Origin: Candidatus Omnitrophota bacterium
GTDB lineage: Bacteria; Omnitrophota; Gorgyraeia; Zapsychrales; JANLHA01
Length of the DNA stretch: 64,000 nt
Reading direction: 5' to 3'
Assembly: GCA_040753435.1 (NCBI GenBank)
Contig: JBFMEN010000067.1
Coordinates: forward strand, 2,441-66,440
Shown one piece after another: positions 10,823-11,804 of this stretch (its first letter is position 1; every line of letters begins with the position of its first letter). Under the pieces are notes generated by a model. It saw nothing but the letters and a program-made list of their open reading frames with translations, was not told the origin of the DNA and ran no database searches. The position numbers and the translations under genes are program-made.

Positions 10823-11521
10823 TCATTCAAAGTAGTAGGCGAACTCTTTTTCATCAAGCAGTGGCTGGCCATTCTTTACAGGGGTTAAATCAGCATAAAT
10901 CGTGGCGTTATCTTCCGATACGCACAAGGGTTTAAATGGATTGATCCGGGCGGCTTGCCGGCAAAAAAAGGCGACTGTTTTTTTATTAAAAAAGCGAACA
11001 TGGGTCGGGTCACCAACGGCATTATCGCTTTGGGCGCGCGGCACCATAAGATGCAGGACCCCGTTCAATTTAATTATTCGATGAAGTTCATTCATTAATT
11101 CGATTAAATGATGGATGTGTTCAAGAACATGAATGGCAAACACATGATCGGCCGCATCATCACGAACAGGAAGGGGCCGCTCAAGATCAGCGACAATGTC
11201 GACTCCATCACAGGGAAAACGATCGATTCCGATAAAATTTGAATATTGTTTTTGATTGCCGCAACCGATATCAAAAATGACTGGAGGGCTTTGACCGTTC
11301 ACAGTAATCATATCCCAGATCGCATAAATTCCTTTAAGGCGGGACAGGGCCTTTCGAATCATAAATTGATCATCGTTATGCGAAACCGTCCCTGTGACAT
11401 GGGCGACTTGTCCCTGGATATCTAAATCAAAAGAACAGCGGGAGAAACGTTTGTCATATGATAAAATTTCATTCGCATGCTCAAGTAACGATGTGTCAAC
11501 TCCGGATAGCAATTTCCGCAT
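10823..11521 (-). CDS. class I SAM-dependent methyltransferase
   Basis: Motif I (IFDIGCGNQ) and an acidic loop (VDIVADLERPLP) are present. Confidence 0.7.
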   Translation of the reverse strand: MRKLLSGVDTSLLEHANEILSYDKRFSRCSFDLDIQGQVAHVTGTVSHNDDQFMIRKALSRLKGIYAIWDMITVNGQSPPVIFDIGCGNQKQYSNFIGIDRFPCDGVDIVADLERPLPVRDDAADHVFAIHVLEHIHHLIELMNELHRIIKLNGVLHLMVPRAQSDNAVGDPTHVRFFNKKTVAFFCRQAARINPFKPLCVSEDNATIYADLTPVKNGQPLLDEKEFAYYFE

Positions 11522-11804
11522 GTGCGTTTCTCGCCGTGGTCCTCATTTAAAACCGGCAGTAAAAATTTTAAAAATAATAGCGGGAGAAACGCTTCTTCAA
11601 CAGCGCCACATCGTCTAAAAACTCCATGCTCAGCAATAACAATATACGTTACCTGCGTTTCTCTCCGCAATTTTTCAAGTATTAATCTAATCGACAATCC
11701 AAACAGAAAGATTAACGGGAGAAACGCAACTTGCAGTACATGATTCGCGTCCTTACCCAACTTTTGTTAATTTAACTATGCTTTCTCACTGGCGTTTCTC
11801 GCCG
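11438..11804. repeat. array of six alternating-orientation copies of the motif CGGGAGAAACGC / GCGTTTCTC(G/T)CCG
   Basis: Copies at ~11438(+), 11524(-), 11579(+), 11655(-), 11716(+), 11792(-). Spacing is 54-87 nt. The first copy lies inside the MTase CDS; the rest lie in the 430-bp intergenic region. Confidence 0.7.

Follow-up and report, generated by a model that had tools for sequence, protein, structure and literature searches.

The question raised by this locus is what six copies of a short motif, alternating in orientation, are doing between a short-chain dehydrogenase (SDR) gene and the gene of a BON-domain SAM-methyltransferase in an Omnitrophota genome. In the following, the window is the whole stretch of DNA that was analysed (64,000 nucleotides). 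A sequence-only reading had reported the six copies and proposed either consecutive RNA hairpins or a six-site operator for a dimeric regulator. The array is real, and its exact positions could be confirmed. On the plus strand, CGGGAGAAACG occurs without mismatch at 11439-11449, 11581-11591 and 11716-11726, and GCGTTTCTC[G/T]CCG at 11524-11536, 11655-11667 and 11792-11804. The order of the six motifs is strictly +,-,+,-,+,-, with start-to-start spacings of 85, 57, 74, 61 and 76 nt. The motif had been described as a 12-mer ending in C, which holds for two of the three plus copies, whereas the copy at 11439 ends in T. The minus copies had been taken for its exact complement; this is not so, as each of them carries one extra base (11533 G, 11664 T and 11801 G on the plus strand).

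The two genes that flank the array are the following:

10823-11521, minus strand: methyltransferase gene (232 aa), with a BON-like N-terminus and a class I SAM-dependent methyltransferase domain (Pfam Methyltransf_23/11)
11954-12703, minus strand: SDR gene (Pfam adh_short), upstream of the methyltransferase gene

The methyltransferase is a 100% match to an NCBI MAG protein of Candidatus Omnitrophota. Its N-terminus is conserved across the family (D9, L12), and the ATG at 11521 is therefore the real start. The non-coding gap, estimated before at about 430 bp, is present and extends exactly from 11522 to 11953 (432 nt). All genes between 8.2 and 17.8 kb lie on the minus strand, and the methyltransferase ORF overlaps a gene encoding a GT9 heptosyltransferase. 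The neighbourhood also holds a second GT9, an HldE-like kinase/cytidylyltransferase, a GT4, a GT2 and an MFS transporter, and looks like a lipopolysaccharide-core-type envelope cluster. Scanning 30 ORFs across the window revealed no recombinase, integrase or obvious regulator domains, and no tRNA was found in the window. Literature searches for a BON-methyltransferase together with a heptosyltransferase returned no papers.

In the sequence searched, the motif does not behave like a generic repeat. Elsewhere in the 64 kb, only two isolated 11-mer matches with one mismatch were found (49905 and 63476), which is chance level. Allowing up to one mismatch, the 13-mer had no other match in the 64 kb (0.19 expected), and none of 100 dinucleotide-preserving shuffles reached three matches. 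The motif was likewise not abundant in species-representative genomes, metagenomes or viral contigs, abundance being the finding that would have spoken for a generic repeat. Scans for the exact arm pair gave no match in 185,579 species-representative genomes and none in viral contigs. In metagenomes, the exact-arm scan returned only the orthologous locus L004/L005/L007 and five unrelated GC-rich matches, four of which had no extra complementarity and were at chance level. The arm motif might be recognised by a trans-acting factor that is shared with unrelated hairpins, such as one in L010. The earlier suggestion that the motif could mark a regulon found no further copies in the window. A covariance model (CM) of the unit described below, run with filters off, scored only the three units of the array (90-105 bits). 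The next match, 18 bits at 17955-18074, is unconvincing as a regulon marker, consisting of a 6-bp AGAAAU/AUUUCU match.

Followed along the minus strand from 5′ to 3′, the six motifs make up the arms of three hairpin units. Each unit is laid out as a 5′ arm (G)CGG-N-GAGAAACGC, an interior of 63-74 nt and a 3′ arm GCGUUUCUC-CCG(C). The leader of the methyltransferase mRNA is thus composed of these parts, in the direction of transcription:

11816-11953, minus strand: conserved first part of the leader, between the SDR stop codon and U3, 58-74% identical to the related locus L004
11703-11815, minus strand: U3, the first unit; fold -37.5 kcal/mol, z -4.6; CM 105 bits; outer helix ACAGGAAGAU/AUCUUUCUGU
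11792-11804, minus strand: U3 5′ arm, CGG[C]GAGAAACGC, bulge at 11801
11716-11727, minus strand: U3 3′ arm, GCGUUUCUCCCG
11569-11677, minus strand: U2; sense fold -31.7 kcal/mol, z -2.5; CM 90 bits; outer helix UGAAAA/UUUUUA
11655-11667, minus strand: U2 5′ arm, CGG[A]GAGAAACGC, bulge at 11664
11581-11592, minus strand: U2 3′ arm, GCGUUUCUCCCG
11431-11544, minus strand: U1, the last unit, which encloses the methyltransferase start; outer helix GAGGAC/GUUCUU with two G.U pairs
11525-11536, minus strand: U1 5′ arm, CGG[C]GAGAAACG, bulge at 11533
11439-11449, minus strand: U1 3′ arm, CGUUUCUCCCG, codons 25-28 of the methyltransferase (CGT TTC TCC CG, encoding RFSR)

The stem of each unit comprises 12-13 bp and one bulged base, whose position is fixed and whose identity varies (C, A, C). 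Every unit adds an outer helix of its own (6-10 bp) between 5′ and 3′ flanking sequences rich in A and U, respectively, giving a total helix of 19-24 bp. The three consecutive hairpins proposed earlier are therefore borne out in kind, since all three units fold in this way, but the stems of 13 bp plus the outer helix are longer than claimed. The loops had been put at 40-60 nt; the paired arms are in fact separated by 74, 63 and 65 nt. The units are 87-98 nt long and successive units lie 44-48 nt apart. Tandem Repeats Finder reported nothing for the array because the interiors of the units have diverged; the three periods of about 137 nt have little in common beyond the arms and the A-rich flank. 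An intrinsic terminator or attenuator was rejected, as there is no terminator-like site on the minus strand in 11200-12100 and the interiors measure 63-74 nt. The U-rich tracts downstream of the 3′ arms belong to the outer helix.

The position of U1 relative to the gene is the central observation. Its 5′ arm ends 2 nt (AC, after a further unpaired C) upstream of the ATG at 11519-11521, its interior consists of the start codon and codons 1-24, and its 3′ arm is the copy that had already been placed within the methyltransferase ORF. The start region is thus predicted to be sequestered, the 5′ arm at about -15 to -3 pairing with codons 25-28. The duplex that -35..+5 forms with +40..+130 was set against 28 control windows of the same gene. 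In the window, this duplex has an energy of -31.7 kcal/mol, against -21.0 +/- 2.7 for the controls, and ranks first of 28 (z -3.9).

The start-enclosing duplex was also found in two related lineages. The first, L004 (also L005/L007), is a soil-metagenome locus that was assembled twice; its methyltransferase is 60% identical and lies downstream of an SDR ortholog. It carries two units with the arms of the window and with bulges C and U, and the second of them encloses the ATG at the same distance as in the window (72 nt from ATG to 3′ arm). The methyltransferase of the other lineage, L001, is 57% identical, and its gene call is 54 nt too short: an upstream ATG at 5947 restores the N-terminal VDxxLL motif of the family. 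Here, a single start-enclosing hairpin is present, beginning 20 nt past the stop codon of the preceding gene, and no further arm copies were found in 12.6 kb of L001. Its arms, GGCGGGAAAAA/UUUUUCCCGCC, are unlike those of the window and have no bulge, yet are still complementary, the change including the replacement of a C-G by a U-A pair at the third position of a Phe codon. All six units, three in the window and three in L004 and L001, fold as closed hairpins with unit-specific outer helices.

In both relatives, the start-enclosing duplex again ranked first of 28 (z -2.5 in L004 and z -2.8 in L001), whereas 80 other BON-methyltransferase loci gave a mean z of -0.1. In all three lineages, the duplex is an outlier against the controls from its own gene, and the element is therefore confined to a single small clade. 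The 80 loci came from a protein-guided ortholog search of genome contigs; none of them exceeded 49% identity and none had the hairpin. Synteny extends to a more distant ortholog from Omnitrophota (L002/L013, 49% identical), but there the gap contains two additional genes and the hairpin is absent. An SDR ortholog occupies the matching position in L004/L005 and in L002. The ortholog comparison left out P0008, P0019, P0040 and P0005, which were too distant or had their 5′ end cut off, and the SDR-guided contigs L097 and L098 stop just past the SDR gene.

The enclosure of the start codon bears on the main rival explanation, which we consider unlikely. According to this, the units would be intercistronic stability or processing hairpins, whose interrupted helices of about 22 bp block 3′ exonucleases or are cut by RNase III. 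They would thereby uncouple SDR expression from that of the methyltransferase and GT9, as REP/BIME and phage T7 intercistronic sites do. Tandem units between two co-oriented genes fit such a role, as do a helix totalling 19-24 bp that is interrupted by a bulge and an internal loop, a hairpin too stable to melt in silico and the closeness of the L001 hairpin to the upstream stop codon. A stability or processing role does not explain, however, why, of all the units, it is the ancestral one, retained in every lineage, that has the start codon in its interior and takes one of its arms from codons 25-28, and cleavage in the start-enclosing stem would cut the coding sequence.

Which strand folds was judged from gene orientation and from the outer helices. 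In U1-U3, these use G.U pairs that are present on the sense strand only, and the antisense fold of U2 reaches only -22.9 kcal/mol, without the outer helix. Per-unit folding energy alone is indecisive, the antisense being more stable than the sense for the units L4_B and L1_h. The sense strand is thus the preferred folding strand in our models. The energies of L4_B and L1_h would fit a functional plus strand, that is, an antisense RNA which covers the methyltransferase start and ends at a terminator-like hairpin at 11826-11844, and this is indeed the only terminator-like site of the region, directly past the array. We nevertheless judge an antisense RNA highly improbable: the terminator hairpin has no conserved counterpart in L004 and has an interrupted T-run (TTTAAATTT), a plus-strand promoter was not found, and on the plus strand the outer helices of U1-U3 have fewer pairs.

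Next to position, we compared the conservation of the arms with that of neutral sites. At four-fold degenerate sites, the window and L004 agree in 38% of positions, or in 33% once the first 30 codons are set aside, and neutral positions are therefore saturated. The arms, on the other hand, are 100% identical, including every third position of codons 25-28, so that conservation goes beyond neutral saturation. The 5′ arm of U3 and its outer helix are 89% identical to those of L004 unit A and the interior is 69% identical, against 58-74% for the leader upstream of U3. That upstream part (11816-11953) contains CCAGCAACCGCCA[C/G]ACGAGAA and two extra GAGAAA half-motifs.

Covariance analysis in related genomes had been proposed as a check of the hairpins, and its outcome is in their favour. 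Across the six units, 91.2% of cells contain standard pairs; with partners displaced by 1-3 columns, the share is 50-62%. Of the 19 pairs, six change on both sides, a number reached by one of 500 shuffles, and the covariation score of 0.295 (against 0.18) was reached by none of 500. These statistics come from six partly paralogous sequences in a model-guided alignment, and we take them as supportive rather than conclusive. The compensatory changes themselves are plain in the alignment.

The same data speak to a duplex-DNA operator array, in which the motifs would be sites for a transcription factor controlling the methyltransferase-GT9 operon. Short, conserved, alternating motifs upstream of an operon are what such an array would look like, and between the window and L004 the sequence itself is conserved, beyond its pairing. 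The six-site operator for a dimeric regulator is disfavoured, however, by the one-base insertion that separates the two orientation classes, which is of variable identity in all five units of the window and L004, and by the unit-specific outer helices. An operator explains neither the insertion nor this outer complementarity, nor does it account for the compensatory change in L001. In addition, the half-sites lie 44-74 bp apart, one site sits 72 nt inside the ORF and no regulator gene is adjacent. We consider an operator most improbable.

Alternating inverted repeats that flank a start codon and 24 codons could also be sites of a site-specific recombinase, working as an invertible ON/OFF switch, as a shufflon-like system on the 5′ end of the gene or as attC-like sites. 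Recombining repeats would co-vary too, and units of 87-98 nt with an extrahelical base resemble attC hairpins. An invertible switch or shufflon is disfavoured on two grounds: no recombinase or integrase domain was detected in the 30 ORFs scanned, and the units have one identical orientation in the window and in the independent assemblies L004 and L005. The arms moreover differ by an indel, and there is nothing obvious that an inversion of U2 or U3 would change. As for integron attC sites, the arms GAGAAAC ... GTTTCTC misfit the attC core RYYYAAC/GTTRRRY, with purines at positions 2-4 where pyrimidines are required and the reverse on the other arm. There are also no cassettes or cassette ORFs, the units being separated by 44-48 nt, and no recombinase Pfam domain among the same ORFs. 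Recombination sites of any of these kinds are barely conceivable here.

The number of units varies by lineage, with three in the window, two in L004 and one in L001, which raises the question of where the upstream units came from. U3 and L004 unit A are orthologous and have the interior blocks GAAAGCATAGTTAAA and CGCGAAT in common. Both also share ACGCGAAU/GCGAAU with the coding units, in which it encodes H-A-N-E; as an 8-mer, ACGCGAAU is common to W_U3 and L4_B, 16-21 nt from the 3′ arm. U2, which has no counterpart in L004, contains an ORF remnant of 24 codons, MLLLSMEFLDDVALLKKRFSRYYF (11568-11642, minus strand), which ends in ...KKRFSRYYF and keeps the 3′ arm in the RFSR frame of the methyltransferase. 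These sequence similarities suggest that the upstream units arose long ago by tandem duplication of a segment made of 5′ arm, start, about 24 codons and 3′ arm, after which the copies ceased to be coding and retained the arms.

Given such an origin, the upstream units may be functionless relics of duplication, leaving a role for the start-proximal hairpin only, or none. Their paralogy (ACGCGAAU in two lineages, RFSR-frame remnants in U2) and their variable copy number are consistent with this. What speaks against relics is that U3 and L004 unit A are still 69-89% identical at a divergence at which synonymous sites are saturated (33-38%), and that the arms of the non-coding units are 100% conserved whereas the interiors diverged, which therefore implies selection or gene conversion on the arms. 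We regard relics as very unlikely.

In the array, each 5′ arm is able to pair with all of the 3′ arms. We folded the leader of the window with forced pairings and obtained -158.6 kcal/mol for the tandem arrangement and -161.7 kcal/mol when U3 was closed and U2 and U1 were nested (c:f around d:e). In L004, the corresponding values were -125.5 (tandem) and -125.6 kcal/mol (nested). Tandem and nested folds are thus nearly isoenergetic because the arms are interchangeable. Pairing between arms of different units had escaped the sequence-only reading, as had the paralogy of the units and the enclosure of the start codon.

One model built on this interchangeability is a register-shifting, multi-state RNA switch, in which an event at the first arm would re-partner all downstream arms. 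Pairs a:b, c:d and e:f would give way to b:c and d:e or to nested forms. Translation of a uORF over the first arm, or a factor binding the bulged helix, could be the trigger, and the signal would be passed on to the hairpin around the methyltransferase start, about 300 nt away. Such an array would have been built, and could be expanded, by duplicating the gene's own initiation region. We consider a register switch quite unlikely.

The reading that we favour, with about an even chance of being right on the present models, is a cis-acting structured mRNA leader. Its conserved core would hold the methyltransferase start in a stable bulged helix, and the upstream hairpins would be alternative partners. 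The six motifs would then supply the arms for three long, paralogous hairpins, which form on the sense strand in the leader of the methyltransferase-GT9 mRNA. In the last of these, the core, 13 nt 5′ of the AUG would pair with codons 25-28, so that the ribosome-binding window is locked in a bulged helix that the outer helix lengthens. Initiation of the methyltransferase would thereby be kept low, or made dependent on opening of the helix. The upstream tandem duplicates, with their interchangeable arms, could tune the hold on the start region or protect the transcript. Candidates for opening or using the structure include RNase III, a protein binding to the bulged helix and the uORF that spans the first arm. 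Against this reading, the 5′ arm beside the AUG was paired in every register tested, so that no opening mechanism is evident. In all this, we infer that the gap is transcribed, that RNA, and its sense strand, is the folding molecule, that translation is affected and that the upstream copies modulate the effect. Many genes of the source genome are missing a clear Shine-Dalgarno sequence, and because of this the cost of occluding a start region is uncertain.

Two simple modes of control were rejected for this leader. The predicted accessibility of -18..+12 is flat between 15 and 55 C (0.37-0.40 in the window, 0.31-0.41 in L004 and 0.37-0.46 in L001), which in silico argues against simple thermosensing. 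A 47-codon uORF (11915 to 11772) runs across the 5′ arm of U3, and uORFs cross the first arm in both the window and L004, ending in a conserved CATAGTTAAA block, yet their frames differ, and a conserved leader peptide was discarded.

If the favoured reading is correct, the element is an undescribed cis-regulatory RNA in Omnitrophota, a phylum in which, to our knowledge, next to nothing is known of RNA regulation and a cultured model is lacking; literature searches on its non-coding RNA found no papers. It would also have an unusual origin, with the gene's own initiation hairpin copied in tandem and equivalent arms competing for pairing. Tandem copying would then be a simple evolutionary route to a multi-state leader. 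Its practical reach is limited, with three uncultured lineages and one envelope-modification methyltransferase predicted to be controlled.

Finally, we compared the element with known systems. Rfam 15 gave no match at gathering thresholds across the whole window. At E<=10, the region 11350-11960 matched only a plant microRNA model with 14 bits (gathering score 90), which is noise, and no SAM, SAH or other riboswitch model. The interiors of the units, where an aptamer would be expected, are poorly conserved among paralogs; a novel aptamer in U3 and L004 unit A is conceivable. Since there is no match to described RNA families and the element is conserved in two relatives, it is probably a new, narrowly distributed regulatory leader.

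Integron attC sites resemble the units: they too are imperfect hairpins (about 60-140 nt), have a variable centre and, on one strand, an extrahelical base, and occur in arrays. The units differ in having a single bulge instead of the attC pattern. The resemblance to REP, BIME and REPIN elements is also considerable: short alternating repeats lie in tandem between genes of an operon, form hairpins in the mRNA and fall into orientation classes that differ by a small indel, as do the Y and Z types of BIMEs. Unlike in these elements, the 11-13-nt arm is not itself palindromic, and no dispersed copies turned up in the 64 kb with up to 2 mismatches allowed, in the related loci or in the scans of genomes, metagenomes and viral contigs. 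The element keeps its syntenic position in lineages with methyltransferases of 60% identity, and U1 overlaps a start codon and coding sequence, in contrast to extragenic, mobile REP sequences. On account of this syntenic conservation, the coding overlap and the lack of dispersed copies in the sequence scanned, we disfavour a REP/REPIN-like repeat.

Hairpins processed by RNase III are known from the early region of phage T7, the lambda N leader and E. coli adhE, and some such leader hairpins occlude the ribosome-binding site. Like them, the units are interrupted helices of roughly two turns, located in leaders or between cistrons; unlike in those examples, one strand of the helix here is coding sequence. 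The sequence of the leader is unrelated to any described start-occluding mRNA structure. A close counterpart in form is the E. coli rpoH mRNA thermosensor, in which long-range structure reportedly occludes the translation-initiation region via a downstream coding segment. The Omnitrophota leader differs from rpoH in that it is predicted not to open between 15 and 55 C and in that its hairpin is tandemly duplicated, with interchangeable arms. It resembles rpoH in acting, as proposed, in cis on a single gene, with the region 5′ of the AUG paired to an internal coding segment, here codons 25-28.

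The SDR-to-methyltransferase interval that holds the hairpin array in the window (11522-11953) has its counterpart at 4454-5713 in L002, a more distant syntenic Omnitrophota relative. There, the array is replaced by an ORF of 93 aa together with an ion-transport protein, and a strong terminator-like hairpin (AGAGCCGGTCC...GGACCGGCTCT) lies upstream of the methyltransferase.

For L001, a third lineage with a single start-enclosing hairpin, the JGI call for the methyltransferase P0003 gives 212 aa with a start at 6001, leaving out 5947-6000. This call is probably too short by 18 codons, with the true start at the ATG at 5947, because starting there brings back the VDxxLL motif conserved in the N-terminus of the family. 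This ATG is located 3 nt past the 5′ arm of the hairpin. In the window, the methyltransferase ORF shares 50 nt (10823-10872) with the GT9 heptosyltransferase ORF downstream of it, and the same pair overlaps by 32 nt in the orthologous soil-metagenome locus L004 (1262-1293). The overlap at both loci suggests that the two genes are translationally coupled. As to the SDR gene, the NCBI protein (P0121, 240 aa) begins 9 codons inside the longest ORF (249 aa), the difference lying at window 12676-12703.

When the window was scanned with the covariance model of the hairpin unit, the sole match outside the array was found at 17955-18074 on the minus strand, scoring 18 bits. It consists of an AGAAAU/AUUUCU pair enclosing ~90 nt in the divergent gap ahead of an MMPL transporter gene, and is probably noise.

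The scan for exact arm pairs also yielded a hairpin of ~24 bp, UUGCACAGACCCGGG[G]GAGAAACGCU ... AGCGUUUCUCCCGGGUCUGUGGUAA, on the minus strand of L010 (6030-6175), an unrelated, GC-rich metagenomic contig. Its arm core and bulge position are identical to those of the window units, and it has 8 further outer base pairs beyond those required by the search pattern. The predicted fold has an MFE of -48 kcal/mol (z -4.7), and a 108-aa Cys-rich ORF follows ~70 nt downstream. The likeness to the window units may reflect homology, convergence or chance.

Elsewhere in the window, we found four very large plus-strand ORFs in succession, from 22133 to 53655, and a gene for a CsgG-like protein:

22133-29554, plus strand, very large ORF, 2473 aa
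31079-36118, plus strand, very large ORF, 1679 aa
36319-47721, plus strand, very large ORF, 3800 aa
48866-49837, CsgG-like protein, between the 1679-aa and 1273-aa ORFs
49834-53655, plus strand, very large ORF, 1273 aa

No Pfam match was obtained for the 1679-aa and 1273-aa products. Over the last 4 kb (60001-64000), G+C rises to 0.51-0.52 compared to 0.41-0.47 in the rest, and no RNA gene was detected in this segment.

The interior of the first unit contains a conserved block, GAAAGCATAGTTAAA (window 11772-11790, minus strand; L004 459-470). It carries stop codons in two frames and ends one uORF per lineage, of 47 codons in the window and 27 in L004, the reading frames being different. Directly past the array on the plus strand, GGCGGTTGCTGGTACCGCC and, after it, TTTAAATTT make up a hairpin that resembles a terminator (11826-11844). 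This hairpin is not kept in L004; the block CCAGCAACCGCCA is conserved there. On the minus strand, the region of the hairpin (11805-11860) reads GGCGGTACCAGC, which is similar to the RfaH ops element GGCGGTAG.
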